UHGV virus genome: UHGV-1638998
Length of the DNA stretch: 16,119 nt
Reading direction: 5' to 3' (one strand)
Source of the DNA: a virus
The notes beneath the pieces were generated by a model. The model did not search any database and was not told the origin of the DNA. It saw nothing but the letters and a program-made list of their open reading frames with translations. Position 1 is the stretch's first letter. Each line of letters starts with the position of its first letter. A program made the position numbers and the translations under genes. Positions 1 to 16,080 of this stretch are shown piece after piece.

Positions 1-6
1 GAAGAT

Positions 7-38: not shown

Positions 39-61
39 TCATTCATAGTGCAGGGATTAAA

Positions 62-77
62 ATCATTCCCACTCAAT
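62..77. repeat. attL: attL core (ATCATTCCCACTCAAT)
   Basis: Exact 16-bp copy of the sequence at 16065..16080. On the minus strand it encodes …IEWE-stop, a duplicate of the host gene's last codons. Host DNA with a terminator lies to its left (1..61). Confidence 0.75.
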
Positions 78-130
78 TATTTACGACACACATAACCAAT
101 TGACTGGTAACAATTTTATGCAATCTGATT

Positions 131-161
131 TTCACCGTACCGTTTTATATACCGTCACCGG
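131..161. promoter_or_regulatory. Putative integrase arm-type sites, left arm (CACCGTACCGT, ATACCGTCACC)
   Basis: ATACCGTCACC at 149..159 is identical to 15930..15940; CACCGTACCGT at 133..143 resembles CACCTGTACCGT at 15937..15948. Confidence 0.45.
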
Positions 162-187
162 AAATCAGTGCCATGAAAAATGCCATG

Positions 188-670
188 TCACCGTGTCAGC
201 GAATCGTACTGCTTTTCACAGACTCGTCCGGCTTCGGCGGCCCGGTCAGCGTACTCTGCCAGTTGTCGGTTTCGCTCGAGAGATTTGCTGAGCACGTCGG
301 CAAGCAAAACTCCGGTGTCTGCGGCTGACGCCCCAGTGCCGATAGTGGCGTTATACTGCCTGAGCTGCTCACGGATGGCAACGAGCTGTTGCTGCAACCG
401 GCCAGCGCGAGCGGCAGCATCAAGAGCATCATTGCGCGCCTGGTCGATCCTCTGCTGCGCTTCACGTTCATTGGTCGCTTTTTCCTGTTCGTCATGCTGA
501 CGAGCTTTATCATCAGCCTGTTTCTGATCTGCCTTTGCCTGCGCATACCCGGCATCGTACTGGTGGCTGCCGTGTACATTCCAGGCAACCCTGCCGCCGA
601 TTACCAGAGCAGCAAGCATCGCCACGATAAGCAACTGTTTCCAGTACGCTTTGACGAATGCCCAGATCAT
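188..670 (-). CDS. Rz: Inner-membrane spanin (Rz-like)
   Basis: 160 aa; N-terminal transmembrane segment followed by an Ala/Gln/Arg/Glu-rich coiled-coil body; last gene of the lysis cassette; contains an embedded lipoprotein ORF in another frame. Confidence 0.75.
   Translation of the reverse strand: MIWAFVKAYWKQLLIVAMLAALVIGGRVAWNVHGSHQYDAGYAQAKADQKQADDKARQHDEQEKATNEREAQQRIDQARNDALDAAARAGRLQQQLVAIREQLRQYNATIGTGASAADTGVLLADVLSKSLERNRQLAEYADRAAEAGRVCEKQYDSLTR
196..471 (-). CDS. Rz1: Outer-membrane lipoprotein spanin (Rz1-like), embedded in Rz in an alternate frame
   Basis: ATG at 471 preceded by AGGAAA; signal peptide MNVKRSRGSTRRAMMLLMLPLALAG ending in the lipobox LAG-C; Pro/Ser-rich mature part. 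Start could alternatively be the ATG at 432. Confidence 0.6.
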   Translation of the reverse strand: MNVKRSRGSTRRAMMLLMLPLALAGCSNSSLPSVSSSGSITPLSALGRQPQTPEFCLPTCSANLSSETDNWQSTLTGPPKPDESVKSSTIR

Positions 671-1296
671 ACCGCCAGCACCTTACTGGCAGTGATATAC
701 CGCGCACGCCGGTCGTCGATGCCGTTCTGCCCACCATTGATGATCTGCGTGACGCGCACCAGGTCGCCGGTGTACTTCATGCAGCCTTTGGTTGCGAAGA
801 ACCACGCCGCGCTGCGGGCCGCGTATTCGTCCTGCGCCAGCAGCTCAGGCTGCTTAACCAGATCCACCTTCAGGCCATTGCCGCAGTCGCGATAGTTGTT
901 CAGCCCGGTGATCTGGATAAGCCCGCGCCCGAGGTAAAACCAGCCGTCAGTCGGACCGTTGTTCCCCATTCTTTTGCTGTACACCAGGTTGGCGATCGCA
1001 CGCTGGCGCTCCAGCGGTAACGATGGTTCACCAGCACGACGGCCCAGCGCGTTAGCCTGACCCTGAGTTAGGCGCCCGGTACGGACGAAACCTGCCAGCC
1101 CTGCTACGCTGTAGTTGAAGTTTTCCTGCAGCCGGGTAAAGCCGGTAGACTCATGCCCGACCTGCGCGATAAACATCGCCTGGTGCAGCGGTTGTTCGAT
1201 GCCAAACTCTTTCATTGCCGCGGTGATATGCAGATACCAGCGCGTGGCCAGCACCTCACTGATACCGGCGGCGCGGCGGAATTGGTTAATGTCCAT
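667..1296 (-). CDS. Endolysin, glycoside hydrolase family 19 (chitinase-class lysozyme)
   Basis: 209 aa; motifs FIAQVGHESTGF and GRGLIQITGLNNY are typical of GH19 phage endolysins; RBS GAGG 7 nt upstream; stop overlaps the Rz start (ATGA). Confidence 0.8.
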   Translation of the reverse strand: MDINQFRRAAGISEVLATRWYLHITAAMKEFGIEQPLHQAMFIAQVGHESTGFTRLQENFNYSVAGLAGFVRTGRLTQGQANALGRRAGEPSLPLERQRAIANLVYSKRMGNNGPTDGWFYLGRGLIQITGLNNYRDCGNGLKVDLVKQPELLAQDEYAARSAAWFFATKGCMKYTGDLVRVTQIINGGQNGIDDRRARYITASKVLAV

Positions 1297-1579
1297 GCTG
1301 GGACCTCGTTATCTTGAAAATTTGTACCACATTCCCTTTTGTCTTGATGAGCGCAGCCAGGAACACGGCTTTAATGATGACTTCTGACCAGTCGGCGCTG
1401 ACGTAGTACCCGTAAAACGTCCGGATAGGTACGCTGGCGGCCACGACGATCAACAGGTAGGCGAGCCATCCCCCCCACCAGCGATGGCGTGACCCGTCAC
1501 GACGGAACAGAAGCACTCGGATTGCAATGCCGCCGCAGATAGCGGCGTTAAGGATGAGAAGCAGCTCAGGACTGGTCAT
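1286..1579 (-). CDS. Lysis-cassette membrane protein (second holin or antiholin-like, 97 aa)
   Basis: RBS GGAGAA before the ATG at 1579; overlaps the holin 3' end and the endolysin 5' end; three hydrophobic segments. Confidence 0.45.
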   Translation of the reverse strand: MTSPELLLILNAAICGGIAIRVLLFRRDGSRHRWWGGWLAYLLIVVAASVPIRTFYGYYVSADWSEVIIKAVFLAALIKTKGNVVQIFKITRSQHGH

Positions 1580-1970
1580 CGTCTTTTCTCCCCGGAATCA
1601 GGTCGCGCGGATTTTCAGAACGGTGATACAGCCAGATGCCAATGCGAACAGCGACGATTGCCGACACGAATGCCCCGGCTGAATACACAATGCCCTTCTC
1701 AAAAGAGTCCTGCGTAATCGTCGGTATCAGGCTGGCAAAGCCAATCAGAATGGAAGCTGTCGCTTTATAGAAGAGAACACCGCAGAGGAAGCTGAGAAGC
1801 GCCAGGAGAAGCCGGCGCTTTATAGGATACTCAACTGCTGAGGTAACAAAAATTACCGCGCCAGCGAGCGCCCCTAAAGCCACCTCAGGAGGAACCCCGG
1901 CGACGACGGAAGCCAGCGCACCAAGGCTAAACCCCTGATTGAGTGACTCTGTTGTCAGCGTGGTTGACAT
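1566..1970 (-). CDS. Putative holin (134 aa, multi-pass membrane protein)
   Basis: First gene of the lysis cassette; ATG at 1970 preceded by GGTGG (the listed ORF starts at an upstream GTG); three or four hydrophobic segments and a charged C-terminal tail (RKDDDQS). Confidence 0.55.
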   Translation of the reverse strand: MSTTLTTESLNQGFSLGALASVVAGVPPEVALGALAGAVIFVTSAVEYPIKRRLLLALLSFLCGVLFYKATASILIGFASLIPTITQDSFEKGIVYSAGAFVSAIVAVRIGIWLYHRSENPRDLIPGRKDDDQS

Positions 1971-2181
1971 AGTGACCACCGTTTATTGTGCATATAGAAC
2001 CCCCTTAGTTGGTGAGTCCATCATACACAATAAACCATATGTGGTTAATTGTTACCATCAGTAAAAATACAGCAGCTTCATAATCACAATCAGACATGCC
2101 AGTGGTGTAAGCTACCAACTGGTTTTTTGTCATTTGTCATGGCAGAATCGTGCCACCTGGTGATATCAAAAGAAAACCATC

Positions 2182-2421
2182 ATGATTGGCAAAATTATCA
2201 AATACATATCCCTCTCTTTTGCAATAGCGCTGTTTGCAGTTCTTGCTCTTTCCGCAATCGATAATCAAATGGAGCAAAAAGCGTGGAATAAATATAAAAA
2301 CGAACACGAATGTTTTATTTCAGACACTGAAAGATGTGATGATAATTATAACAACCAAAAAATTTGGCAACATACCATCCTGCTACAAAATGTAAATGTA
2401 ATAATAGTGAGGAATTTGTAA
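2182..2421 (+). CDS. Small secreted or membrane-anchored Cys-containing protein (79 aa), unknown function
   Basis: N-terminal hydrophobic signal-like segment IIKYISLSFAIALFAVLALSA; two Cys eight residues apart; AT-rich like the downstream gene; stop 1 nt before the next start; weak RBS. Confidence 0.35.
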   Translation: MIGKIIKYISLSFAIALFAVLALSAIDNQMEQKAWNKYKNEHECFISDTERCDDNYNNQKIWQHTILLQNVNVIIVRNL

Positions 2422-2422
2422 G

Positions 2423-3541
2423 ATGAAAGTTAATTCTTTTTTTGTTTTTGGATTAAGTTGCCTTTTTATATCAGGGCCGGGATATTCACAAGATGATAAT
2501 GGCAATGAAAAATTAAATGAGGTTACTGTAAGAGGTAATCACCCAAGAGCAAATGGCATTTGGACTCAATACGAAGGTCTTGATACAGCCCTGCGCGGTC
2601 ATGAAATTCTCACTGATGTCATTGAACCTAATTCACAGTTCTACAACTGGAAAGGTGAGCCAGTAAAAGCCCATGATTTAACAAATCAGAATGCCGATAA
2701 TTATGATAGCGTTCACAATCACTATCAAAACTTCCTGAGTGAAGTATGGAATTTTAAACCAAACACCAACGCTGTCTCCATCTGGGGTGATTCTGCTGCC
2801 ATTGCTAAAGACTCAAAGGCGTGGGGGGCATTCTTTAGCGCTCGTTCATATTTCAAGGCCTTTACAAAGGATGGGAAATATCATGATCTGGCACCGGCTG
2901 GTTCAGATTTCACATTCAATCCAGAAGACTATGATAACCAACTCGTAGGGGTTGAGATTGATGTCCTTAATGGCGGCAAGCCCGGAGTATTCCCCAATAA
3001 GTCCAAAGTGGGCTTACAGATAGTTGGCTTTGGAAATCCAAACTCCATGGCCGTAGAAGTGCGAAGCGAAGATACAGATAAAGATGTACCAGCAGAGAAG
3101 CGTCGCGGTGTCTGGGAAAGTGGGATTTACTTCAAGAATTCTATAGCTGATTATGGCAGGCTCATTGTTGCTGATTTTGATAAAGCCAAGATGGGTTTTG
3201 ACTTTAGGCGATCTCTATTCCGCGAAGGGATAATGCAGGCACGCACAGAAGGTGTTGGTACCGGTATTATCTTGAATGAAGGAAAGTCGGGAGAAATATA
3301 TGGAGGCACTCGCTGGAACGGTTCAGAAGATAAGCGCAACTGGATTTCAATAAGAAACGGCGAAGGTGGAACTCGTATAGTCTCAAATGATAATACTAAA
3401 GAAGTTCTTGCAGTCGACAACGATGGCGGCGTTTACATTAATGGGGATGTTTACATTAATGGCAAGAAATTAAATGACCTACTAAAACTTGATGAAAGAG
3501 TTTCAAAAATCGAAAAACAATTATCAGAATTAAAAAAATAA
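2423..3541 (+). CDS. Secreted protein of unknown function (AT-rich cargo gene)
   Basis: 372 aa; N-terminal Sec-type signal peptide MKVNSFFVFGLSCLFISGPGYSQ; RBS GAGGA; much lower GC than the flanking phage genes; C-terminal Gly/Asn-rich repeats ending in a short coiled coil. No family recognised. Confidence 0.7.
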   Translation: MKVNSFFVFGLSCLFISGPGYSQDDNGNEKLNEVTVRGNHPRANGIWTQYEGLDTALRGHEILTDVIEPNSQFYNWKGEPVKAHDLTNQNADNYDSVHNHYQNFLSEVWNFKPNTNAVSIWGDSAAIAKDSKAWGAFFSARSYFKAFTKDGKYHDLAPAGSDFTFNPEDYDNQLVGVEIDVLNGGKPGVFPNKSKVGLQIVGFGNPNSMAVEVRSEDTDKDVPAEKRRGVWESGIYFKNSIADYGRLIVADFDKAKMGFDFRRSLFREGIMQARTEGVGTGIILNEGKSGEIYGGTRWNGSEDKRNWISIRNGEGGTRIVSNDNTKEVLAVDNDGGVYINGDVYINGKKLNDLLKLDERVSKIEKQLSELKK

Positions 3542-3544
3542 AAA

Positions 3545-3564
3545 GGTGGGGCGTAAGCCCCACC
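3545..3564. terminator. Bidirectional terminator hairpin between convergent genes
   Basis: Stem GGTGGGGC/GCCCCACC with loop GTAA; the long A-run upstream gives a strong T-tract for the minus-strand tail fiber transcript. Confidence 0.75.
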
Positions 3565-3571
3565 AATCTAC

Positions 3572-6322
3572 TTAATTGCCTTCCAATTTTTCAATTCTTT
3601 TTATTACATCTTGCATCGCTGATACAATTGGTGCTATGAATTGTTCATAACGTAAACCAATCTCCCCATCTTCACCCTCTACATATCCACCAAAGTCGCC
3701 AGTGCCGAGTTGATCAAGTAGGGCTTTAACTTCCTGAGCGATAAAGCCGTAATGGGTACGCTTACCGGCAACCGAAGTGATAACCGTTTTTTTCTTTGGT
3801 ACCCTTACAGTTTCCATGCGAGGAATGCTGACCGTCTCAAGGAAACTACCGTTTTCGTCTTCAACGTTAACAGTATCAAATACCGGGTGCTCAACTTCTT
3901 TTGTAACATATTTTCTTACAAATTTGATTACACCATCAACATTAATTCGCTCGTTAATCTCTTCTGTACTATGGATAATCTCAGTGACCTGCCGTTCTAT
4001 ATATTCAAATCCGTCATCAATTTCTTCAACAACATTCCCCCCACTGATGAAACGATATGATACCGGATGCAGCCCTTTAATAAACTCTATCGATAAGTTG
4101 CTTTCAGCCACATCAGTTTTTAAAGTTCCATCAGATGTTTGAATTGTTCCATTTGCAGCCCAAATAGATGAAGGGCGATTTCCAGATTTACCAACGGTAA
4201 ACATATTATCTACATGCGGGTAAATAGCGGCATTAAAATGTAGTTCATTATTTATTTGAATAAACCCATTACCTTTCGCGGCCAGAATAGTATTTATATT
4301 CGCATCAGGGCCGACAGCGCTAAAAGCAGGTTGATCACCAGTAGTGGCACTATCAAAACGAAATCTATTCACGTCTCCAGAAGAGTATGTGCGATAACCG
4401 AACTCTGCACATGCTCGCCCGTATGCCCCCCCTATAGTGACTATGCCATTTACACCATCAACAGTGATCTGTCGTCGTGCATTGCCGTCCGGATCCCACC
4501 CACTACCAATAAATACTGGATACTGGTCACCGTTACCACCAGCTGCGTGTAGGTGATAAAATCCCCGAGCAGAAGCAATAAGAGAAATATTTTCTTCAAA
4601 TCCAGCTCCGGTAACACGATGCATACGCAATGCAGTAACTAAGTTATCTACACTACCCCACCAATAATAGTCGACATTATCAGCAATACCTACATCCGCG
4701 GTAAGTGTGGCTAACCAAGAATCAGAATATGATGCCTGTACAGTCGTAATGCCATTCACTACGAACGTAGTTTGTATATTGTTGAGCGGAATAAATGGGT
4801 CGCCAGATATACGAATAATTTTCTTCCCCGATACATTGCATTTACCCTGCCCCCAAATGTAACAGCATACATAGGTTGCAGATATTGATGACGGAAATGA
4901 CACCGCGCTGTTATCGATGTTTTTCACTGTAAATGATCCTGATGCCACTGATACCACCGTATACCCAGCATCCCTGATCCATATTGTTTTTCCAATTTCA
5001 TCAACCGTTAAGCCTGGTCCTGTATTTACATTTACGATATTAGTTCCGGCAACAGTTGTGCATTTACCCGCGCGAGAAGCTGGCTGGACTGCGATCTCTG
5101 TCGGGCTTGGGTATTTACTTGGTTGTACTGAAGTCCATGACGAATAGCCATCCGGAAAGAAAACATTACCATAAGTTCCATTAATTGGGTTTCCGCCACC
5201 AACCTGTAGACCGGATACATTGCCAGCATTGCTCCCAAACCTGAAGTTAACACCAAATTGCGGGTGCCCATCCGAACCGCGAACGCCTTCAGTTCCAATA
5301 CTTACAGCCCCGGAACCACCATCAATACGCTGAACAACAGCACGGCGAAGATATCCGGTTCCTGTTATCGTTACTGGCTCTTCAAAAATGAAGTGGCGGC
5401 CGTAGCAGTCCACTTCGGTATTGAGCATGTAGTTTCCAGCAGGAACGAGAATTTGCTTGCCCTTTGGCACTAGGGCGTTTGCGGTAGAGAATGCCGGTGA
5501 GGCGTCCGTTGCGCCGGAATATTCATCGCCTAAGAAGTCTTTAATACTGATAAACTGCGCGTTAAAATCATGCTGCGTACGCCCTACCGCTCCAGCATAA
5601 GGCTGTTTTACGCCAATTAAGGAATCCCCCTTCCCATCATCAGTGCTTGCTAATTCAATGAGGACATCCGCTGCGCTTCCGCTTTCCGGAAGAAGCATAA
5701 TCGGATTACCAGATGAATCCATACCAACAATTTTATTTTTTCGTAACTCAATAGATGGTAATTGTGGGATGCTTTCTTCCGTACGAAGCGTTCTGCTGAA
5801 TAACAAATCTGTATGTGAAGTATTTCCTTCGCTTAATGAATCAGCATAATTTTTAGTTGCTGCATCCTGTGGCCTTACCGGATCTCGCAGATTTCTAATA
5901 TAGTTACTCATGGCATCGTAATAATTTGCCACAAACGACGGTTTACGCAATGCCAGGCTGAACAAACTGCCCACCTGCTGAATCAGCATCGTCAGTTTAT
6001 CGAATGCATCTTCATGCACCTCAGCGAAAAACTTACCCTGATTGCGCAGGTCTGTTTCCTGCGTTGCCTCCAGCTCGCGGGCAATCGATATTTGCCAACC
6101 GTTCGCCAGCGGCGAGGTAAGAACAACACTTCCGCCGTTAAAGCCACCAGCGTTCGTCACGGTGTAGTCAGTATCCAGCACCAGTACCGTGATGTTTTCG
6201 CTCAGGTCAATCACTGAAACGGTAAGGTCTGCTTTCTTGAAAATTCGGAAGGTGTAAGGGAATGATGTCGTAACGCCGTTCCCGGTGTAATCGTTATGGT
6301 CAACTACGGTTGATACCGTCAT
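3572..6322 (-). CDS. Tail fiber / tailspike protein with T7-gp17-like N-terminal anchor and C-terminal intramolecular chaperone (peptidase S74-like) domain; candidate depolymerase
   Basis: 916 aa from ATG 6322 (RBS GGAGA; the listed ORF starts 14 codons upstream). N-terminus …GNGVTTSFPYTF…LDTDYTVT… follows the T7 gp17 pattern. C-terminus HYGFIAQEVKALL…LRYEQFIAPIVSAMQDVIKRIEKLE resembles the self-cleaving chaperone domain of endosialidases. The central region is lower in GC. Confidence 0.85.
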   Translation of the reverse strand: MTVSTVVDHNDYTGNGVTTSFPYTFRIFKKADLTVSVIDLSENITVLVLDTDYTVTNAGGFNGGSVVLTSPLANGWQISIARELEATQETDLRNQGKFFAEVHEDAFDKLTMLIQQVGSLFSLALRKPSFVANYYDAMSNYIRNLRDPVRPQDAATKNYADSLSEGNTSHTDLLFSRTLRTEESIPQLPSIELRKNKIVGMDSSGNPIMLLPESGSAADVLIELASTDDGKGDSLIGVKQPYAGAVGRTQHDFNAQFISIKDFLGDEYSGATDASPAFSTANALVPKGKQILVPAGNYMLNTEVDCYGRHFIFEEPVTITGTGYLRRAVVQRIDGGSGAVSIGTEGVRGSDGHPQFGVNFRFGSNAGNVSGLQVGGGNPINGTYGNVFFPDGYSSWTSVQPSKYPSPTEIAVQPASRAGKCTTVAGTNIVNVNTGPGLTVDEIGKTIWIRDAGYTVVSVASGSFTVKNIDNSAVSFPSSISATYVCCYIWGQGKCNVSGKKIIRISGDPFIPLNNIQTTFVVNGITTVQASYSDSWLATLTADVGIADNVDYYWWGSVDNLVTALRMHRVTGAGFEENISLIASARGFYHLHAAGGNGDQYPVFIGSGWDPDGNARRQITVDGVNGIVTIGGAYGRACAEFGYRTYSSGDVNRFRFDSATTGDQPAFSAVGPDANINTILAAKGNGFIQINNELHFNAAIYPHVDNMFTVGKSGNRPSSIWAANGTIQTSDGTLKTDVAESNLSIEFIKGLHPVSYRFISGGNVVEEIDDGFEYIERQVTEIIHSTEEINERINVDGVIKFVRKYVTKEVEHPVFDTVNVEDENGSFLETVSIPRMETVRVPKKKTVITSVAGKRTHYGFIAQEVKALLDQLGTGDFGGYVEGEDGEIGLRYEQFIAPIVSAMQDVIKRIEKLEGN

Positions 6323-6426
6323 GGCCTGTCTCCAATAAAGCAGCGCCCGGCGCGCATGCATCATCTGGACAGTTTATTACCTAGCAAACCTTATATGAAT
6401 TGAATGAATAACAATCATGAAAGTTA

Positions 6427-6441
6427 TTACCTTTCAGGTAA
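6427..6441. promoter_or_regulatory. Operator-like palindrome TTACCTTTCAGGTAA (perfect)
   Basis: In the divergent region between the tail fiber start (6322) and the LexA-box gene, 38 bp upstream of the LexA box. Confidence 0.6.
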
Positions 6442-6478
6442 AGCTCATATCGTGCTGGATAGTGTTTCAAAGTTTTGC

Positions 6479-6498
6479 TACTGTACATACATACAGTA
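6479..6498. promoter_or_regulatory. LexA (SOS) box TACTGTACATACATACAGTA
   Basis: Matches the enterobacterial LexA consensus TACTG(TA)5CAGTA at all CTGT/ACAG core positions; 20 bp upstream of the ATG at 6518. Confidence 0.75.
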
Positions 6499-6517
6499 AT
6501 TGCATGGAGAACATGAG

Positions 6518-6778
6518 ATGCAACGTCAGTATCATCACCCGCTGGAAAAAGGATTTGCCGAACGCATACACACGCCGGGAGGCGTCCGCTCCCTTGTAGA
6601 AGAATCACATCTGATGACGTTGCTGCGACAACTGAATGAGGACGGATTTAACGTTGATGGCCCGATGGCGGAACTAACTGCCTTGGTGAACTACGTCACC
6701 AGCTCGCAGATGTCCATGAAGGATCTGCAGATGCATCTCGATTACTGTGTGGAAAAACTGAAGCAGGAAACGACTTAA
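6518..6778 (+). CDS. Small SOS-regulated protein, putative antirepressor (86 aa)
   Basis: ATG at 6518 with RBS GGAGAA 7 nt upstream (the listed ORF starts at an upstream TTG); a near-consensus LexA box lies 20 bp upstream. The product is not recognised; antirepressor function is inferred from context. Confidence 0.55.
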   Translation: MQRQYHHPLEKGFAERIHTPGGVRSLVEESHLMTLLRQLNEDGFNVDGPMAELTALVNYVTSSQMSMKDLQMHLDYCVEKLKQETT

Positions 6779-6812
6779 AAAAAGGCCGCATAGCGGCCTT
6801 GTGACATGTCAC
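6777..6812. terminator. Bidirectional terminator region between convergent transcription units
   Basis: 8-bp stem AAGGCCGC/GCGGCCTT (6782..6789 and 6793..6800), A-run on one side so a T-run on the minus strand; followed by the perfect palindrome GTGACATGTCAC (6801..6812). Confidence 0.65.
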
Positions 6813-7000
6813 AGTAATGGTAGCTTAAACACTATAGCCGCGAGAATGACGAAGGTCGCGAAGTAAACGACCTTCGCAGAGGTCTCGCCAAGCCAACCTT
6901 TTCTGATAGCGAATATTACCGCCCAAACATACGCCGTGCCGCATACCACGAAGAACGCAAACCAGAACAGAATCATGCCTATCTTGATCAATATATCCAT
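6809..7000 (-). CDS. Small membrane protein (63 aa, two predicted transmembrane helices)
   Basis: ATG shares a base with the TAA of the RuvC-like gene (TAATG). Translation MDILIKIGMILFWFAFFVVCGTAYVWAVIFAIRKGW… is strongly hydrophobic. The listed 84-aa ORF probably starts at this internal ATG. Confidence 0.5.
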   Translation of the reverse strand: MDILIKIGMILFWFAFFVVCGTAYVWAVIFAIRKGWLGETSAKVVYFATFVILAAIVFKLPLL

Positions 7001-7791: not shown

Positions 7792-7794
7792 GGC

Positions 7795-7871: not shown

Positions 7872-7908
7872 TTATACAGGCGTAAAAAAATGCGCTGCCG
7901 CGCTGGTG

Positions 7909-9461: not shown

Positions 9462-9670
9462 CAGATCACCTCCGGCACGTTGCCTTTCGCAGCTTCATCC
9501 ATAATCCGTTTAATCTCCGCCTGGCGGCGCAGACTTGAGTTGATGGCGCACTCAACGCAATGGCCGTTATAGACGTAACGCTCACTGTCATGACCGTGTT
9601 TGCACTTTTTACCGGTGTAATAACGCTTAAGACCTGCCTTTGCAGCGTCCAGACGAGTGATAATCTCCAT
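9461..9670 (-). CDS. Small zinc-ribbon protein (CxxxH…CxxC), function unknown
   Basis: 69 aa; RBS GAGG 7 nt upstream; stop overlaps the start of the next gene (TGATG), whose start is preceded by GGAGGTGA. Confidence 0.5.
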   Translation of the reverse strand: MEIITRLDAAKAGLKRYYTGKKCKHGHDSERYVYNGHCVECAINSSLRRQAEIKRIMDEAAKGNVPEVI

Positions 9671-9689
9671 TACGCAACCTCATTGACGT

Positions 9690-9704
9690 TTACTATTACG
9701 GTAA
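9690..9704. promoter_or_regulatory. Operator-like site TTACTATTACGGTAA (9/10) upstream of the replication genes
   Basis: Located between the terminator and the RBS (GAGG) of the 9461..9670 gene. Confidence 0.4.
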
Positions 9705-9763
9705 TTTTGTGCGATGGCCGAAAAAAGATCAACCATATTCGGATCATTATTACCTGAGAGAAC

Positions 9764-9776
9764 TGAATAGATATGA
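9764..9776. repeat. 13-mer TGAATAGATATGA, copy 1 of 3
   Basis: Exact 13-bp match to 15968..15980 and 16031..16043; lies immediately beside the terminator after the Cro-like gene. Confidence 0.5.
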
Positions 9777-9779
9777 AAA

Positions 9780-9797
9780 GACCGCCAGAAGGCGGCC
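9780..9797 (-). terminator. Putative intrinsic terminator just downstream of the Cro-like gene (tR1-like position)
   Basis: Minus-strand hairpin GCCGCC-UUCU-GGCGGU followed by CUUUUCAU, within 40 nt of the stop at 9820. Confidence 0.45.
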
Positions 9798-9819
9798 TGA
9801 TGGGGTTTAGAGGGAGGTT

Positions 9820-10050
9820 TTATTCGTAGAAGAAGATGGCCAGTTCCGGCTTTGTTCTGACCCATCCGCGCTGTTTGCATGCCTTAAACAGCCCATTCAT
9901 CAATGTCTTACCTGGCATTTTCCGGCGACCTGTCAGATGCGTCTGGATGTAATGGCTGGTAGTTCCTGCCTCGTCAGCAAAGGCATTTCGCTCATCAGGA
10001 GTGAGTTGCAACCAGTGTTTTTTGAAGTCGAATTTTTCGTTCTCGCTCAT
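9820..10050 (-). CDS. Cro-like small DNA-binding regulator (YdaS-like)
   Basis: 76 aa, divergently transcribed from the repressor gene; HTH-like segment AFADEAGTTSHYIQTHLTGRRK; position equivalent to lambda cro. Confidence 0.55.
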   Translation of the reverse strand: MSENEKFDFKKHWLQLTPDERNAFADEAGTTSHYIQTHLTGRRKMPGKTLMNGLFKACKQRGWVRTKPELAIFFYE

Positions 10051-10086
10051 AGCTATTGCCTGATATTAATTTCAGATAACAAATAT

Positions 10087-10149
10087 TCACCCAGAAGGTA
10101 ATAATAATCAAGGTTTGTTACCTGTCGGGTGCATTTACCTGTGAGGTAA
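10087..10149. promoter_or_regulatory. Right operator cluster in the divergent switch region: three TTACC-N5-GGTAA-type sites
   Basis: TCACCCAGAAGGTAA at 10087..10101 (9/10), TTACCTGTCGGGTGC at 10118..10132 (weak) and TTACCTGTGAGGTAA at 10135..10149 (perfect), between the Cro-like start (10050) and the repressor start (10205). Confidence 0.7.
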
Positions 10150-10204
10150 ATTCGCTTTTAATTGAACCACTAACTAATTCATATATGAGGCGAATCACCA
10201 GAGC

Positions 10205-10795
10205 ATGAAAAGTATTCAGGATATCCGCAGGCAGAATATTAACGATATCATCGACCGTGACTTTAACGGGGTGCAGACTCGTCTGGCGGAAAAACTGGGA
10301 ACTCAGGCCAACCTGGTGAACCGCTGGGCCCGCGGGCAGAAGGTTATCGGCGACACGGTGGCGCGCAAGATTGAGAAGGCGGCGAACAAGCCGTCGAACT
10401 GGCTGGACGTAGACCACTCATTATCTGCTGTTGCCATACCGCAGGAGGAGATCACCCCTTCCGATATCGGCCAGCTGGCGGCGCATAATCTCGAAGCGTG
10501 GATGCAGAATAACCGCGACCTGTCGTCTCAGGGAAAGGTGTCTAAAGCGTCCGGCGTTGCCCAGGCGACAATCCAGCGCATGCTGAACAATGAGGTTAGC
10601 GTTTCTATCTCCACCCTGGAGGCGATCGCTGGCGCGTTCGGGCGCCGCGGCTATGAGTTGCTCATCCATCCCCGCGACCCGGCGACCATCCATTACGACC
10701 GGGCCCGCTACGCATTGTTACCTGAGAGCGAGAAAAGCAAGATTGAGAGCTACGTCGATTTTGTGATTGTTCAGAACGGTAAAGCGCAAGATTAA
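10205..10795 (+). CDS. Prophage repressor, dual HTH, no recognisable LexA-like autocleavage domain
   Basis: 196 aa; two XRE-type HTH-like segments (LAEKLGTQANLVNRWARGQ and VSKASGVAQATIQRMLNNEV); no GxSM serine-peptidase motif; divergent from a Cro-like gene across an operator-rich intergenic region. Confidence 0.65.
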   Translation: MKSIQDIRRQNINDIIDRDFNGVQTRLAEKLGTQANLVNRWARGQKVIGDTVARKIEKAANKPSNWLDVDHSLSAVAIPQEEITPSDIGQLAAHNLEAWMQNNRDLSSQGKVSKASGVAQATIQRMLNNEVSVSISTLEAIAGAFGRRGYELLIHPRDPATIHYDRARYALLPESEKSKIESYVDFVIVQNGKAQD

Positions 10796-10815
10796 AACCA
10801 TATATTTCAGATACT

Positions 10816-10840
10816 AAGCCGCCATTGAGCGGCTTTTTTA
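10816..10840 (+). terminator. Rho-independent terminator after the repressor gene
   Basis: Stem AAGCCGC/GCGGCTT with loop CATTGA followed by TTTTTTA, 20 nt after the stop at 10795. Confidence 0.7.
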
Positions 10841-10852
10841 TTGCCAGAAGCG

Positions 10853-10929
10853 TTACCTTACAGGTAATTTTTTATAATCATACCTATTGACTTCAAACCA
10901 CATAAGGATAATTATTACCTCAACGGTAA
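10853..10929. promoter_or_regulatory. Left operator cluster: two perfect TTACC-N5-GGTAA palindromes
   Basis: TTACCTTACAGGTAA at 10853..10867 and TTACCTCAACGGTAA at 10915..10929, between the repressor-gene terminator and the first gene of the rightward early operon. Confidence 0.7.
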
Positions 10930-10946
10930 CACTGAGGTAACGAATT

Positions 10947-11096
10947 ATGCAGTGGAAAATCATCAACGGTTGGTACTGCGTTACGGCGTGCGGGCTGATG
11001 AGCACTAAGTGCCGCACTCTGCATGAGGCCATCAACTGGGCGTTTGTCACCAAGATGGCAGTCAAAACTGAAATGGATATGGGGGTGAGCAAGTGA
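10947..11096 (+). CDS. Small hypothetical protein (49 aa, Cys-rich)
   Basis: ATG at 10947 after GAGG, immediately downstream of the left operator cluster; stop overlaps the next start (GTGA). Below the ORF-track cutoff. Confidence 0.3.
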   Translation: MQWKIINGWYCVTACGLMSTKCRTLHEAINWAFVTKMAVKTEMDMGVSK

Positions 11097-11392
11097 ACAT
11101 CCAGCAGATCAATAACCTAAAAAGCATCATGACCAGCATCGACAGCGACTACCAGCTGAGCCAGTTGCACTACGAGCGCCAGGTAGAGCTGATCGACGCC
11201 ATTAAGCATCACCAGCTGCAGGAACCTTTCTATGCGCTGGAGCGCAAAGGCGTGCGCAAGGAGATTCTGGAAGAGCTAATGATGAATCCGGAATTTGAAG
11301 AAACTCTCGCTGCATTCCAGAGCGCGCTGACCAGCATCATCGCGAAGTGGGATCTGGCTGACCAGTTGGACACGGCGAGGAACGCGGCATGA
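11093..11392 (+). CDS. Hypothetical acidic protein (99 aa), first conserved-size gene of the recombination operon
   Basis: GTG start preceded by GGGGGTGAG; overlaps the upstream small ORF stop and the downstream exonuclease start. Confidence 0.5.
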   Translation: MNIQQINNLKSIMTSIDSDYQLSQLHYERQVELIDAIKHHQLQEPFYALERKGVRKEILEELMMNPEFEETLAAFQSALTSIIAKWDLADQLDTARNAA

Positions 11393-12210
11393 AGCCAGGA
11401 ATTTACTTCGACATCAGCAACGAGGATTACCACTCCGGAGACGGCGTGAGTAAGTCGCAGCTGGATATGGTTGCGTTGAGCCCGGCCCTGCTGCAATGGC
11501 AGAAATCAGCGCCGGTCGACACCGAAAAGCTGAAAGCGCTGGATATGGGCACCGCCCTGCACTGCCTGCTGCTGGAGCCGGAAGAGTTCGATAAGCGTTT
11601 CATCGTGGCGCCGCAGTTCAACCGCCGCACAGCAGCCGGAAAAGAGGATGAAGCAGCGTTCCTGAAAGATGTCGAGAACATGGGCATGACGGTTATGGAT
11701 GCCGAACAGGGCCGCAAGCTGAATCTTATGCGTGACAGCGCGATGGCCCATCCGGCGGCGCGCTGGCTTCTTGAGGCGGAAGGTTTCTGCGAAGCGTCGC
11801 ACTACTGGACGGATTCGGAAACCGGAGAGCTGTGCCGCATTCGCCCGGATAAGCGCCTGAAGAATCATCCGGTTCTGCTGGACGTAAAGAAGGTTGCGGA
11901 CATGGAGCGGTTCTCCCGCCACATCGAGGAATTCCGGTACCACGTTCAGGACGCCATGTACCGCGAAGGCGCGCAGCAGACCACCGGTGAGCCGCACGGA
12001 TTCTTTTTCCTGGCAGTGAGCGAAACCATCGACTGCGGCCGCTACCCGGTGCGCGTTTTCGAACTGGATGCACAGGACGTTGACGCCGGGCATGCACTGT
12101 TCCGCCGGGATCTGAATACCTACCACCAGTGCCGTGAGTCTGGCGAATGGGGTGGATTTGAAATTATCAAACGCCCCGAGTGGGCACGCAAACAGGATAA
12201 GTACGTATGA
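11389..12210 (+). CDS. PD-(D/E)XK family exonuclease (recombination partner of the annealing protein)
   Basis: 273 aa; RPD…LLDVKK resembles a PD-(D/E)XK nuclease motif; RBS GAGG 8 nt upstream; paired with the Bet-like gene. Confidence 0.65.
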   Translation: MKPGIYFDISNEDYHSGDGVSKSQLDMVALSPALLQWQKSAPVDTEKLKALDMGTALHCLLLEPEEFDKRFIVAPQFNRRTAAGKEDEAAFLKDVENMGMTVMDAEQGRKLNLMRDSAMAHPAARWLLEAEGFCEASHYWTDSETGELCRIRPDKRLKNHPVLLDVKKVADMERFSRHIEEFRYHVQDAMYREGAQQTTGEPHGFFFLAVSETIDCGRYPVRVFELDAQDVDAGHALFRRDLNTYHQCRESGEWGGFEIIKRPEWARKQDKYV

Positions 12211-13088
12211 GCAACGACATCGCAATCACATCGCAGCCTGGCGCAACCGTTGGCACCGCTGCGGCAATCTTCAGCCCTGAGGGCATGGACCGCCTGGTGC
12301 GTTTCGCAACCCTGATGGCTGACAGTAAGGCCACCGTTCCTGCGCACCTGGCAGGAAAGCCTGCTGACTGCCTGGCTGTGACCATGCAGGCGGCGCAGTG
12401 GGGCATGAACCCGTTCGCTGTGGCGCAGAAAACACATGTGGTTAACGGCACGCTTGGTTATGAAGCGCAGCTGGTAAACGCGGTTGTGTCCTCCTCCAAT
12501 CTGCTGGCCACCCGCCTGAATTATCGCTGGGATGGTGACTGGTCGAAAGTAAACGGGAAATCCGACAAATCGCCGAACCTGACCGTTACCGTATGGGCAA
12601 CCCTCAAAGGAGAATCAGAGCCGCGCGAGCTGACGATCAGCATGGCCCAGGCCGGTGTTCGGAACTCCCCTCTATGGGAGCAGGATCCTCGACAGCAGCT
12701 CGCATACCTTTGCGTTAAGCGTTGGGCTCGCCTGCATTCCCCTGACGTCCTGCTTGGCGTGTACACCCCTGACGAATTGCAGGAAACGGCACCGCGCGTT
12801 GAGCGCGATATCACGCCGACACCCGCTACCGCGTCCGGCATGAACAAACTGATCAACTCCAAGTCTGAGCAGCACCAGGAGGAGAAGCCGAAGAGCAGCG
12901 ACGACCGCGATCCAGAAGAAATTCTGTGCGCCTTCACTGATGCAGCGATGAACTACAACACGCTGAAAGATCTGGACAAGGCATACAAATACGTTGCCAG
13001 CAAGCTCTCTAACGACGATGACCGACTGGCTAAAGCCACTGACGTGTACACCATCCGCCGAGATGAGCTGAACGAAGTCCCAATGTAA
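12207..13088 (+). CDS. bet: Single-strand annealing recombinase, Red-beta (Bet)-like
   Basis: 293 aa; segments AAQWGMNPF and ERDITPT resemble lambda Bet (ANQYGLNPW, ERDITPV) from memory; directly coupled to the upstream exonuclease (ATGA overlap). Confidence 0.7.
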   Translation: MSNDIAITSQPGATVGTAAAIFSPEGMDRLVRFATLMADSKATVPAHLAGKPADCLAVTMQAAQWGMNPFAVAQKTHVVNGTLGYEAQLVNAVVSSSNLLATRLNYRWDGDWSKVNGKSDKSPNLTVTVWATLKGESEPRELTISMAQAGVRNSPLWEQDPRQQLAYLCVKRWARLHSPDVLLGVYTPDELQETAPRVERDITPTPATASGMNKLINSKSEQHQEEKPKSSDDRDPEEILCAFTDAAMNYNTLKDLDKAYKYVASKLSNDDDRLAKATDVYTIRRDELNEVPM

Positions 13089-13095
13089 TCACCAC

Positions 13096-13114
13096 CGTGG
13101 CGCCACGGCGCCAC
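13096..13114. repeat. GC-rich palindrome CGTGGCGCCACG with overlapping GGCGCCAC repeat
   Basis: Perfect 12-bp palindrome immediately after the stop of the 12207..13088 gene; no following T-tract. Confidence 0.4.
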
Positions 13115-13137
13115 ACCTGCAACCAAGAGAGGTATTT

Positions 13138-13386
13138 ATGAAAGGTGCATTTGGTAAGAAGGAACTCCTGGCGGTGGTGCCACTGTCATGGAGCACGATT
13201 GACCGCCTGGAACAGGCTGGCGAATTCCCGTCTCGTTTCTGGATCACCGACCGCCGCTGTGCGTGGGACCAGAGCGAAGTTGAAGCCTGGCTGGATAAAC
13301 GTAAGGCGGCAAGCCCGGCGACGTTCACCGGAAAAAAGCCTCCAGTTGACCGCCGCGTTTATCGCCCGGTGAGTGCAGCTGCATGA
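13138..13386 (+). CDS. alpA: AlpA-family transcriptional regulator / excisionase-like protein
   Basis: 82 aa; the segment LLAVVPLSWSTIDRLEQAGEFPSRFWITDRRCAWDQSEVEAWL matches the AlpA/Xis-type HTH pattern; RBS GAGG 7 nt before the ATG; sits between the recombination genes and int. Confidence 0.7.
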   Translation: MKGAFGKKELLAVVPLSWSTIDRLEQAGEFPSRFWITDRRCAWDQSEVEAWLDKRKAASPATFTGKKPPVDRRVYRPVSAAA

Positions 13387-13481
13387 CGGCGCTGAAGAAG
13401 CATATCGGCAGATGGTCAGATGTGTACCTGTATCTGGCCGTGGTCGCCTACCTGATGTGGCTGGCGGCGGTAATCAGTTGA
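13383..13481 (+). CDS. Small hydrophobic peptide (32 aa, one predicted transmembrane helix)
   Basis: ATG overlaps the AlpA stop (ATGA). Translation is MTALKKHIGRWSDVYLYLAVVAYLMWLAAVIS. Below the ORF-track length cutoff. Confidence 0.3.
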   Translation: MTALKKHIGRWSDVYLYLAVVAYLMWLAAVIS

Positions 13482-13495
13482 GAGGTCTGGATCAA

Positions 13496-13792
13496 ATGAA
13501 AAAGACGAAACTTGAGCGCTATCACGAAGACTACGTCTCGCAGCGCCGTGTTGAAAGAGTGGTGGCAGTAACGCCGGAAGCCATGGAGATCGAAAGCCGG
13601 GCCATCGAGCGCGAGCGCCGCGGTCATTATCGCATCGCGGCCCGCCTCTGGCTCCAGTGCCTGGATGCGGCTGTTGGTGAAGTTGAGCGCGCCCGTATCG
13701 CGATGCGCCGCCAGCAGTGCATCACCAAAGGTAACCGCACCCCGCATCTGGACTACAGCGGGATCGGATGTCGCGGGGTGGTTTATGACTAA
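13496..13792 (+). CDS. Hypothetical regulator, possibly PerC-like transcriptional activator
   Basis: 98 aa from ATG 13496 (RBS GAGG upstream). Basic protein with the segment GHYRIAARLWLQCLD, which I recall as resembling PerC-family prophage activators; identification is weak. Confidence 0.45.
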   Translation: MKKTKLERYHEDYVSQRRVERVVAVTPEAMEIESRAIERERRGHYRIAARLWLQCLDAAVGEVERARIAMRRQQCITKGNRTPHLDYSGIGCRGVVYD

Positions 13793-13943
13793 CCCGCACG
13801 ACGGGATCACCGTGGGCAGTGTCACGCTGCCCTATTCCATCATTCGCCGTGGATGGGTAGCACCGAACGGCGACGTTATCAGAAACCCATTGAAGGCTCA
13901 GCGCCTGGCCGAGCTGATGAACTGTAAGAAGGTGGCGGCATGA
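13785..13943 (+). CDS. Small hypothetical protein (about 52 aa), translationally coupled to the methyltransferase
   Basis: ATG at 13785 preceded by GGGGTGG; overlaps the upstream stop (ATGACTAA) and the downstream start. The listed ORF 13665..13943 probably starts at this internal ATG. Confidence 0.4.
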   Translation: MTNPHDGITVGSVTLPYSIIRRGWVAPNGDVIRNPLKAQRLAELMNCKKVAA

Positions 13944-14587
13944 CTGGCAAATACACTCTCATTTACGCAGACCCGCCTTGGGTATACCGTGACAAAGCAG
14001 CCGACGGCGAGCGCGGCGCCGGCTTCAAGTATCCGGTTATGAACGTGCTGGACATCTGCCGCCTGCCTGTGTGGGATCTGGCTGCCGAAGATTGCCTGCT
14101 GGCTATGTGGTGGGTTCCAACACAGCCGATTGAAGCGTTGAAGGTTATCGAAGCGTGGGGATTTCGCCTGATGACGATGAAGGGATTCACCTGGCACAAA
14201 ACGAATAAGCACAAAGGCAACAGCGCCATCGGCATGGGACACATGACCCGGGCGAACAGCGAAGACTGTCTGTTTGCGGTGCGCGGGAAACTGCCGGCGC
14301 GCATGGACGCTTCGATCTGCCAGCATGTCACGGCGCCGCGCCTGGAGAACTCGCGCAAGCCGGACGTGATCAGAGAGAAGCTGGTGCAGTTGCTTGGCGA
14401 TGTGCCGCGCATCGAGCTATTCGCCCGCCAGTCGTCGCATGGGTTTGACGTTTGGGGAAACCAGTGCGAAGGCCCGGCGGTGCAGTTGCACCCTGGTTAC
14501 GCGCTGGATATCGCCGGGATAACGAGGGCATTCGGACATGCTCCGTTGTCACCAACAGACAACCAGGGCCGGGAGCGTGCGGCATAA
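13940..14587 (+). CDS. MT-A70 family N6-adenine DNA methyltransferase (orphan, no cognate nuclease seen)
   Basis: 215 aa; N-terminal LIYADPPWVY, a DPPW catalytic motif typical of MT-A70/Dam-like phage methyltransferases; start overlaps the upstream ORF stop (ATGA); RBS GGTGG. Confidence 0.8.
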   Translation: MTGKYTLIYADPPWVYRDKAADGERGAGFKYPVMNVLDICRLPVWDLAAEDCLLAMWWVPTQPIEALKVIEAWGFRLMTMKGFTWHKTNKHKGNSAIGMGHMTRANSEDCLFAVRGKLPARMDASICQHVTAPRLENSRKPDVIREKLVQLLGDVPRIELFARQSSHGFDVWGNQCEGPAVQLHPGYALDIAGITRAFGHAPLSPTDNQGRERAA

Positions 14588-14622
14588 TTCATCAGCGAGA
14601 TTTAAATAGCCATTTAATTCGG

Positions 14623-15873
14623 CTACTGACTTTCCATCCACCTCTCAAACTTCGACGGGGAGAACGGTACCAGATCGGTGTGCTCCCCATTAATCCAGGA
14701 ATCAACCATATCTGCCCACTGCTGCAACATATAGGCTCGCTGCCGGGCATACTCCGCTTTGTTGTAAACCGCGCGTACGCCCTTCTGCTCATGTGCCTGT
14801 GCCTTCTCGATCCAGTCTGATGGATAATCAGCTTCATGCAGCAGCGTGCTTGCCGTACGGCGCAGGTCGTGCACCGTGAAGTCCTGTATCTTCTCGCCGT
14901 CTCTGTTTATGGCCTCCACGGTACGGTTTACCAGCGAGTTCAGCGCCGCGTTCGATAACGGCTTACGGAAGTTGTAGCGCCCGGGCACCAGGTATTCACT
15001 GCCGCCAGCACACATCTGCAACCCCACCAGCAGATCCTGCGCCTGCTTCGGCAGGTAAATCACATGCGCACGCCCGGCCTTCATCCTGTCAGCGGGGATC
15101 GTCCATGTCCATTTCTTGAAATCGATCTCTGCCCAGGTCGCGTAAGTGAATTCGCTTTTTCGCACCAGCGTCAGCAGTACCAGCTTGAGAGCCATCTTCA
15201 TTGTGCCCATCGCTCCGATGTCGTCCAGCGCGCGGAAGAAAATGCCGATCTCCTCTGGCGACAGTGTGCGCTCGCGCGGCTTAAACATAGCGATGGATGA
15301 TGGCTTAATGTCGGCAGCCGGATTGAACAGGCCGTGCCCGCGGTCGTTGGCATACCGGTACACACTGCTGATTATCTCCCTGACCTGAATCGCCCTCGCC
15401 CGGCCGCCACGCTCGACGATACGATCGCACAGGTCGCGCACCACCCTGGTGGTTATCTCAGTCATCATCTTGTTTCCGAGCACCGGGAGGATATCACGCT
15501 CAATAACCGCCTGCTTCATGGATCGGGTGCTGTCGGCCAGGGTGACATATTTCATGTAGGCGTCGGTATATACCGCGAATGTTTCTGCGCTGGAAATCTG
15601 CCTGATACCGTCACGTTTTGCCGCAGCAGGCGACTGGCCTGACTTCAGCAACTTTTTGGCGGCAATAAGTTCCTCGCGCGCTTCCGCCAGGCTGATACCG
15701 TCACGACCGTACTGACCGATCACCAGCGTTTCCCGGCGGCCGTTAATGCGGTAGTCGTAGCGGAACGAGACAGATCCTGACGTGAGCACGGCGACATACA
15801 GCCCGTCACGGTCGGAAACCTTATACAGTTTCTCCTGCGGCTTCAGATTTTTCAGTTTGGTATCGGTAAGCAA
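14623..15873 (-). CDS. int: Tyrosine site-specific integrase, P4-like family
   Basis: 416 aa; N-terminus MLTDTKLKNLKP… is typical of P4-type integrases; C-terminal HDLRRT and a conserved Tyr region (AVYNKAEY). Adjacent to the att core. The listed start is TTG; no in-frame ATG nearby. Confidence 0.9.
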   Translation of the reverse strand: MLTDTKLKNLKPQEKLYKVSDRDGLYVAVLTSGSVSFRYDYRINGRRETLVIGQYGRDGISLAEAREELIAAKKLLKSGQSPAAAKRDGIRQISSAETFAVYTDAYMKYVTLADSTRSMKQAVIERDILPVLGNKMMTEITTRVVRDLCDRIVERGGRARAIQVREIISSVYRYANDRGHGLFNPAADIKPSSIAMFKPRERTLSPEEIGIFFRALDDIGAMGTMKMALKLVLLTLVRKSEFTYATWAEIDFKKWTWTIPADRMKAGRAHVIYLPKQAQDLLVGLQMCAGGSEYLVPGRYNFRKPLSNAALNSLVNRTVEAINRDGEKIQDFTVHDLRRTASTLLHEADYPSDWIEKAQAHEQKGVRAVYNKAEYARQRAYMLQQWADMVDSWINGEHTDLVPFSPSKFERWMESQ

Positions 15874-15915
15874 AATTCACCCGTAATGCATCCATGTTTT
15901 TGTCGGTATGAGAGT

Positions 15916-15930
15916 ATACCTTTCAGGTAA
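15916..15930. promoter_or_regulatory. Operator-like palindrome ATACCTTTCAGGTAA (9/10 match to TTACC-N5-GGTAA) upstream of int
   Basis: Lies between the int start (15873) and the arm-type repeats; 14 of 15 bases identical to the site at 6427..6441. Confidence 0.5.
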
Positions 15931-15950
15931 TACCGTCACCTGTACCGTCG
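15930..15950. promoter_or_regulatory. Putative integrase arm-type sites, right arm (ATACCGTCACC, TGTACCGT)
   Basis: The 11-mer ATACCGTCACC at 15930..15940 is repeated exactly at 149..159 in the attL arm. TACCGT occurs twice on each arm. Confidence 0.45.
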
Positions 15951-15967
15951 AAAAATGTGGCGTAGAG

Positions 15968-15980
15968 TGAATAGATATGA
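15968..15980. repeat. 13-mer TGAATAGATATGA, copy 2 of 3
   Basis: Exact copy; between the attR-side terminator and the arm-type repeats upstream of int. Confidence 0.5.
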
Positions 15981-15989
15981 GTAGTTATA

Positions 15990-16020
15990 AACAAAAACCC
16001 TCTGCGATTACAGAGGGTTA
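15990..16020 (-). terminator. Rho-independent terminator carried on the element side of attR, now downstream of guaA
   Basis: Same 9-bp stem AACCCTCTG/CAGAGGGTT (15996..16004 and 16011..16019) with a different loop (CGATTA); followed on the minus strand by TTTTTGTTT. Confidence 0.65.
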
Positions 16021-16030
16021 GATATTAAAA

Positions 16031-16043
16031 TGAATAGATATGA
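16031..16043. repeat. 13-mer TGAATAGATATGA, copy 3 of 3
   Basis: Exact copy; between the attR core and the attR-side terminator. Confidence 0.5.
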
Positions 16044-16064
16044 TGAGCTATGAGCTAGCTATAC

Positions 16065-16080
16065 ATCATTCCCACTCAAT
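16065..16080. repeat. attR: attR core (ATCATTCCCACTCAAT)
   Basis: Exact 16-bp direct repeat of 62..77; overlaps the last codons and stop of the host guaA-like ORF. Confidence 0.75.

Follow-up and report, generated by a model that had tools for sequence, protein, structure and literature searches.

The stretch analysed here, UHGV virus genome UHGV-1638998 (16,119 nucleotides, called the window at its full length), carries an element of 16,019 bp at positions 62–16080, both flanking repeat copies included. Judged from its sequence, the element is almost certainly a cryptic (defective) Uetakevirus prophage, integrated at guaA and derived from an intact form by one deletion of 22,678 bp. An earlier note on this DNA had described an element of about 16 kb between att repeats, with immunity, replication, recombination, tail fibre and lysis genes and with no capsid, portal or terminase, and this description is accurate. 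The note left open whether the element was a deletion-decayed prophage or a helper-dependent element. The first reading is borne out by a prophage of 38.7 kb in E. coli EP91B, which is 99.9% identical to the window and differs from it by that single block.

The intact EP91B prophage lies between guaA and yfgI, has the same att cores and occupies positions 187–38883 of locus L001 (38,697 bp). In blastn, window positions 1–7545 correspond to L001 38942–31400 and positions 7539–16119 correspond to L001 8728–148, both at 99.9% identity. One block is missing from the window (22,678 bp, equivalent to L001 8729–31405). The sizes agree exactly, as 38,697 minus 22,678 is 16,019, the length of the element. 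The earlier note had proposed alignment to complete related prophages as a way to locate a deletion junction. This alignment places the junction at 7543–7545, where two truncated genes are joined:

Positions 7539–7545: deletion junction CCGGTAC, with TAC (7543–7545) present at both parental ends.
Positions 7000–7791, minus strand: chimeric open reading frame (ORF) of 263 amino acids (aa), an in-frame ruvC::gp17 fusion (PHROGs and blastn).

The ruvC part comprises about the first 83 codons (7543–7791) and matches the Holliday-junction resolvase family phrog_1770 at profile positions 3–80 of 158 (aa 1–83). The gp17 part comprises about the last 180 codons (7000–7545) of a 918-aa virion protein and matches phrog_684 at profile positions 659–840 of 840 (aa 77–261). 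The C-terminal half of RuvC is missing from it, which makes the fusion a scar rather than a gene. The sequence shared by the two parental ends is short; TAC is exact (3 bp), and CCGGTAC and CCGCTAC agree at six of seven positions, which argues for illegitimate, microhomology-mediated joining. A single gap between flanks of 99.9% identity, with a fusion ORF running across it, is the structure of a deletion-formed defective prophage, and nothing in the data contradicts this origin. The reverse order of events, in which an insertion turned the 16-kb form into the 38.7-kb form, is contradicted because both junction genes are truncated. By the degree of identity of its flanks, the deletion is recent.

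In EP91B, the lost block holds the remainder of RuvC; eight small ORFs, two of which code for a candidate transcriptional regulator of phrog_536 and a UmuD-like protein immediately upstream of terS; and TerS, TerL, the portal, a protease, the major capsid protein, cement and staple proteins, the tail tube/hub, a T7-gp14-like core protein, two more large proteins and the first ~739 residues of the gp17 homologue. Both terS and terL were deleted together with several kb on either side (~3.4 kb upstream), so the usual location of pac or cos is missing, and we infer that the packaging signal was lost. On the packaging mode of Uetakevirus, the literature searched and a PDB sequence search with EP91B TerL gave nothing usable; in the epsilon15 record, HHpred notes compare TerS and TerL with terminases of two other phages, SF6 of Bacillus and Sf6 of Shigella.

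The Pfam scan covered 26 ORFs of the window, the PHROGs scan 10 ORFs with no or only a weak Pfam match, and the PADLOC scan 10. Among the ORFs scanned with Pfam and PHROGs there is no capsid, portal or terminase family, and the only structural matches are the tail fibre and the gp17 fragment. The complete virion and packaging module of a functional phage is not present. The only long unassigned ORF, at 11506–12225 on the minus strand, has no PADLOC match and stood outside the Pfam and PHROGs scans; it is antisense to the exonuclease gene and is unannotated in RefSeq genomes of 99.9% identity. ARAGORN finds no tRNA in the window, and Rfam gives no match at gathering thresholds.

Misassembly can create large internal gaps, and the window might have been an assembly or sampling artefact, that is, an intact prophage whose contig had been collapsed or wrongly joined. 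This is hardly credible here. The parental sequences share 3–7 bp at the junction, too few to collapse an assembly, and the exact 263-aa fusion is recorded in 30 blocks of a public assembly collection, with some of the contigs 0.2–1 Mb long. In all 24 of the 24 contigs read, the fusion lies between guaA and yfgI with the same neighbours, so the deletion is real and vertically inherited. Analogous remnants are also found in independent complete genomes. A 34-mer across the junction is absent from the 2.9 million viral contigs of IMG/VR, from GTDB species-representative genomes and from complete E. coli genomes; in the last set, window coverage of at least 80% occurs only in remnants with other junctions.

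The boundaries of the element are defined by a direct repeat of 16 bp, ATCATTCCCACTCAAT, with exactly two copies in the window:

Positions 1–61: host sequence towards yfgI, with no difference from the guaA-yfgI intergenic region of E. coli.
Positions 8–34: native guaA terminator hairpin, displaced by integration.
Positions 62–77: attL core ATCATTCCCACTCAAT, the reverse complement of the published core attgagtgggaatgatt.
Positions 15993–16019, minus strand: hairpin brought in by the phage, 85% identical to 8–34, which takes the place of the guaA terminator in the lysogen.
Positions 16065–16080: attR core, which holds the guaA codons IEWE and the stop codon.
Positions 16066–16119, minus strand: 3' end of host guaA (GMP synthase).

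The sequence attgagtgggaatgatt has been published as the attP/attB core shared by phiV10, epsilon15 and vB_EcoP_ZX5, all of which insert at the guaA 3' end (PMC9782041). The window shows this Uetakevirus mode of integration at the guaA 3' end through the core ATTGAGTGGGAATGAT(T), and the right copy closes guaA. The phage's own copy of the guaA terminator sits just inside attR, and the native hairpin is now on the attL side. Upon integration, guaA therefore regains its end and, through the phage hairpin, a terminator as well.

Only members of the Uetakevirus group, with genomes of ~39–42 kb, match the window when phage records are searched by megablast, and their matches begin at 60–62 and stop at 16080. 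Coverage of the window is 73% at 88.8% identity for Enterobacter phage BUCT554, 34% at 80.2% for epsilon15 and 27% at 77.9% for phiV10; Tyrion, SPN1S, epsilon15 and phiV10 match at 77–82% identity. Overall DNA identity to isolated phages is 77–89%. The gene order of epsilon15 is that of the window on both sides of a gap. One side runs through gp17 (918 aa), gp18, gp19, the tailspike, serotype-conversion genes, holins, endolysin and Rz/Rz1 to attP. The other side comprises int, methylase, gp33, RecT, exonuclease, gp36, gp37, repressor, gp39, gp40, the DnaT-like gene and RuvC.

Two genes had made the earlier note think of satellites, namely a P4-type integrase and an AlpA-like regulator:

Positions 13138–13386, plus strand: AlpA-family helix-turn-helix (HTH) protein, 79% aa identity to epsilon15 gp33 and likely the excisionase.
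Positions 14623–15873, minus strand: tyrosine integrase with a P4-type arm-binding domain and HDLRRT and VYN motifs, 85% aa identity to the epsilon15 integrase.

Both genes are indeed present, but the pairing is no mark of a satellite, since it is native to plaque-forming epsilon15. At integrase position 247, the residue in the window is that of epsilon15. In the satellite explanation, the element would be of the P4, phage-inducible chromosomal island (PICI) or capsid-forming PICI (cfPICI) type, with its own switch, replication and lysis genes and receptor-binding protein, and would exploit, as a parasite, the capsid and tail of a Uetakevirus resident in the same host. The small size of 16 kb and the integrase with an AlpA-family gene agree with this, the att sites, replication genes, tail fibre and lysis genes are all intact, and the genus-specific N-terminal anchor of the fibre could in principle fit a helper tail hub. 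Against it, an intact prophage matches all of the element at 99.9% identity and differs by one block, and a junction inside two genes indicates a recent accident and not an evolved architecture. The P4-like hallmarks Sid, Psu, Delta and the alpha primase-helicase have no match among the ORFs scanned with Pfam and PHROGs. From the PICI/cfPICI set, the same scans find int and AlpA and no primase-replicase, terS or capsid gene, and with PADLOC included they find no Ppi/Rpp or head-tail adaptor family. The terS and terL genes and their flanks are deleted, sister remnants retain different gene sets, and the absence of the junction 34-mer from 2.9 million viral contigs also speaks against mobilisation as a satellite. 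We consider a satellite very unlikely, and the helper-dependent element of the earlier note is not upheld.

That note had named two findings that would count against a satellite, namely structural genes it had overlooked, or an obvious deletion scar left with no intact mobilisation functions. Most of this is what we see. The scar is obvious, but the excision functions (int, the AlpA-like gene and both att cores) are intact by sequence. Among the ORFs scanned, the only structural piece added to the tail fibre is the C-terminal gp17 fragment in the fusion ORF at 7000–7791, recognised with PHROGs.

Remnants at the guaA site are also present in at least four further E. coli strains. Their junctions differ and lie in P, in the 69-aa gene or, mediated by IS1, inside the tail fibre. 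Three of these strains are as follows, with deletion intervals in L001 coordinates:

Strain 2017.15.02CC: 6782–33808 deleted (27.0 kb), with IS1 in its place and ending inside the tail fibre gene.
Strain PSS-07 (~84–99% identical lineage, gtrABC cargo): 6819–32269 deleted (25.5 kb), with the junction where the 69-aa gene meets the DnaT-like replication gene.
Strain AST205 (72–88% identical lineage, acyltransferase cargo): 8060–32544 deleted (24.5 kb), inside P and joined just upstream of the tail fibre.

The gene sets of the remnants differ. O/P genes are absent or truncated in four of the remnants (two without intact P and two without O and P), and the tail fibre is halved in one. This points to repeated decay and argues against a conserved satellite architecture. 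Intact forms are commoner, with 13 genomes carrying at least 80% of the 22.7-kb block. Among the matches listed, eight cross-matched integrase/lysis records give prophage sizes of 39–41 kb in seven cases and 14 kb in one, too few for a test of endpoint clustering.

With the window included, there are five remnants from at least three sequence lineages, with deletions of 22.7–27.0 kb, and nearly the same block is gone in each. These remnants raise the question of domestication, in which the element would be kept by selection for homoimmunity, for surface-related cargo, for RecT/exonuclease, or as a fibre/conversion cassette for related phages. Each retained ORF of the window is intact, all five remnants keep the immunity-recombination and lysis arms and a conversion slot with different cargo, the whole tail fibre is kept in four of five while the same central block is lost in all, and by now the remnant has reached at least 24 assemblies. 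However, 99.9% identity leaves too little time for visible purifying selection, and both ends survive any single internal deletion. The remnants listed were picked up through their similarity to the window, which biases the list, and one of them has lost half of its tail fibre. Domestication, by which the element would be more than selectively neutral debris, is unlikely on balance.

A palindrome of 15 bp, TTACCT-N3-AGGTAA, occurs in the window in eight copies with at most two mismatches, while 0.39 copies are expected by chance. All eight are intergenic, at 6427, 7795, 7857, 10087, 10135, 10853, 10915 and 15916:

Positions 6427–6441: operator-like palindrome TTACCTTTCAGGTAA between the tail fibre gene and the 86-aa gene; epsilon15 has a repressor site at the equivalent place.
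Positions 7795–7871: pair of operator-like palindromes upstream of ruvC.
Positions 10087–10149: operator pair in the divergent repressor/cro promoter region.
Positions 10853–10929: operator pair around a promoter-like TTGACT-17-AATTAT of the leftward early operon.
Positions 15916–15930: operator-like palindrome with one mismatch, upstream of int.

Sites of repressor binding are annotated in the epsilon15 record around the repressor gene and also upstream of terS, the portal operon, the tailspike gene and ruvC. Most palindromes of the window match these sites, and the one at 15916 has no annotated counterpart there. Totals of the promoter and terminator scans are at the level of shuffled sequence, and single sites were used only where position and operators agree. 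From the placement of the operators, the repressor seems to control several operons directly. The earlier note had counted the lack of an N- or Q-like gene as unusual. None is recognisable, but this is a trait of the genus and no anomaly, as the repressor seems to act directly on several operons.

The course of events was most probably as follows. A temperate podovirus of the epsilon15/phiV10 type used its tyrosine integrase to insert itself at the guaA 3' end in E. coli. A later single illegitimate recombination joined ruvC at about codon 84 to a point ~180 codons before the end of the gp17-like gene. Repressor bound to the dispersed TTACCT-N3-AGGTAA operators would silence the early operons of the remnant, and the cargo genes may be expressed. 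If derepressed, the element could excise through int, the AlpA-like protein and the att cores, and could replicate from the DnaT-like initiator, P and the origin repeats. The tail fibre would be an orphan, without a tail hub to attach to, and the element would be inherited vertically. Immunity against homoimmune phages is probably still given, and the element may still excise and replicate. As far as gene content indicates, particles cannot be made or entered by a recognisable route.

Some parts of this account are less firm than the deletion itself. The remnant is presumed to be silent and able to excise, and its intact lysis cassette may still fire; a candidate regulator was lost with the deletion. 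The loss of pac/cos is deduced only from the loss of terS, terL and their flanks. In addition, the five deletions are more alike in their endpoints than a naive random model predicts, and something beyond chance may be involved. On the early side the ends span 1.9 kb (69-aa gene to ruvC) and on the late side 2.4 kb (end of gp17 to tail fibre), and these intervals bracket the palindromic repressor sites that precede ruvC and the tail fibre gene. The similarity of endpoints may be a matter of ascertainment; the list of remnants is small and, being gathered by similarity to the window, is biased to the same architecture. It is quite improbable that loss of the central block is non-random, either through a deletion hot spot (e.g. 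operator regions looped by repressor in the lysogen) or through selection for a domesticated form. Such a form would keep immunity, RecT/exonuclease and the tail-fibre/conversion/lysis arm, and might serve as a donor of host-range cassettes to superinfecting relatives. If the clustering survives an unbiased survey, it would indicate a hot spot or selection and shed some light on the disarming of podovirus prophages and on the modules that hosts keep.

The genes retained in the window are all full-length compared with EP91B. Most are nucleotide-identical, and the integrase, P and one holin have 1–2 substitutions. The replication, immunity and recombination genes are arranged as follows:

Positions 7909–8694, minus strand: replication protein P homologue, lambda-P-like, 261 aa (Pfam, E-value 1e-55), with one substitution compared with the EP91B prophage.
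Positions 8691–9461, minus strand: DnaT-like replication initiator, 256 aa (Pfam).
Positions 9461–9670, minus strand: 69-aa gene of phrog_1081, function not assigned.
Positions 9820–10050, minus strand: cro-like regulator, 76 aa, phrog_35, divergent from the repressor gene.
Positions 10205–10795, plus strand: prophage repressor, 196 aa, with two HTH domains and without an S24 peptidase domain (Pfam), in the same position as the epsilon15 repressor.
Positions 10947–11392, plus strand: two small early genes of 49 aa and 99 aa, gp37- and gp36-like.
Positions 11389–12210, plus strand: PD-(D/E)XK exonuclease (Pfam).
Positions 12207–13088, plus strand: RecT (Pfam).
Positions 13496–13792, plus strand: PerC-like regulator.
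Positions 13785–13943, plus strand: DUF1317 protein.
Positions 13940–14587, plus strand: MT-A70 adenine methyltransferase.

The DnaT-like gene holds two repeated GTAACGC...GCGTTAC hairpins, at 9077–9104 and 9286–9313, which may be the replication origin. A strong terminator-like hairpin at 9779–9798 on the minus strand lies between the cro-like gene and the replication genes, even though the window has no recognisable antiterminator gene. PADLOC reports a type II methyltransferase among the 10 ORFs that it scanned.

The opposite arm, next to attL, holds the lysis cassette, the cargo genes, the tail fibre and the end of the virion operon:

Positions 188–670, minus strand: Rz-like i-spanin, DUF2514, 160 aa (Pfam, E-value 9e-45), nucleotide-identical to the intact EP91B prophage.
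Positions 196–471, inside the Rz-like gene: embedded Rz1 o-spanin, 91 aa, with lipobox LALAGC.
Positions 667–1296, minus strand: endolysin of glycoside hydrolase family 19 (GH19; Pfam), identical to the EP91B prophage.
Positions 1286–1579, minus strand: holin, Phage_holin_3_7 (Pfam).
Positions 1566–1970, minus strand: holin, Phage_holin_8 (Pfam).
Positions 2182–3541, plus strand: low-GC cargo pair (GC 0.39–0.44), a 79-aa ORF and a 372-aa signal-peptide protein, in the lysogenic-conversion position of the genus.
Positions 3572–6322, minus strand: tail fibre/tailspike, 916 aa, with a Uetakevirus-type N-terminal anchor, a tailspike-like body and a C-terminal Peptidase_S74 chaperone (Pfam, PHROGs), identical to the EP91B prophage.
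Positions 6518–6778, plus strand: gp19-like 86-aa gene, phrog_450, weakly similar to an anti-repressor C-terminus.
Positions 6809–7000, minus strand: gp18-like 63-aa gene, the last of the virion operon.

Rz and Rz1 are annotated in the epsilon15 record in the same arrangement. The holin pair (1286–1970) has one substitution, L14F, compared with the intact EP91B prophage, and the cassette is preceded by its own intergenic region at 1971–2181. The length of 916 aa given for the tail fibre in the earlier note is that of the RefSeq start; the longest ORF reading gives 930 aa.

The cargo pair at 2182–3541 has no match in Pfam, PHROGs, PADLOC or PDB. The 372-aa protein belongs to an uncharacterised family, and a homologue search gave 188 members, including Paenibacillus proteins at ~70% identity. 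Its AlphaFold models are poor, and fold searches with them gave no significant match. In a Pseudomonas locus (L010, 3313–7164), a homologue at 53% identity directly follows an 881-aa tail fibre, which is homologous to the fibre of the window over its entire length. By this arrangement, the fibre and a partner of the 372-aa family travel as a pair. In a Paenibacillus locus (L008, 6001–7122), a homologue adjoins Wzy/Wzt polysaccharide genes.

The practical lesson is that a compact element with int and AlpA and without capsid genes should be compared with intact relatives before it is called a satellite. The window is a clean and datable case of prophage inactivation by one microhomology-mediated deletion, and it matters little beyond correct annotation.

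Compared with Uetakevirus (epsilon15, phiV10, ZX5, BUCT554 and the EP91B prophage), the window shares the att core, the guaA site and the gene order, and the repressor-site palindromes are at matching places. What sets it apart is the missing 22.7-kb block between the middle of ruvC and a point close to the end of gp17, and with it the terminase, portal, capsid, tail hub and ejection proteins and the group of small ORFs that precedes terS. Its tail fibre body and cargo genes are also unlike those of epsilon15 and phiV10. P4-like elements, PICIs and cfPICIs are of similar size (10–16 kb) and have, as the window has, a tyrosine integrase, an AlpA-family gene and site-specific integration. Unlike them, the window has no satellite-type primase-replicase, no capsid-size or packaging-redirection genes, and no terS, capsid genes or recognisable packaging region, and its replication genes are those of the parent phage. 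In kind, the element resembles the cryptic prophages of E. coli K-12, such as e14 (~15 kb, in icd), Rac, DLP12 and Qin. In these, as is generally known, an att-bounded remnant keeps the integrase, regulators and odd late genes while the morphogenesis genes are deleted, as in the window. The K-12 cryptic prophages are derived from lambdoid siphoviruses, whereas the window is derived from a podovirus (Uetakevirus). It is also much younger, at 99.9% identity to an intact relative, and its pseudogenes are only the two genes at the junction. The window is a further instance of this well-known kind of object.

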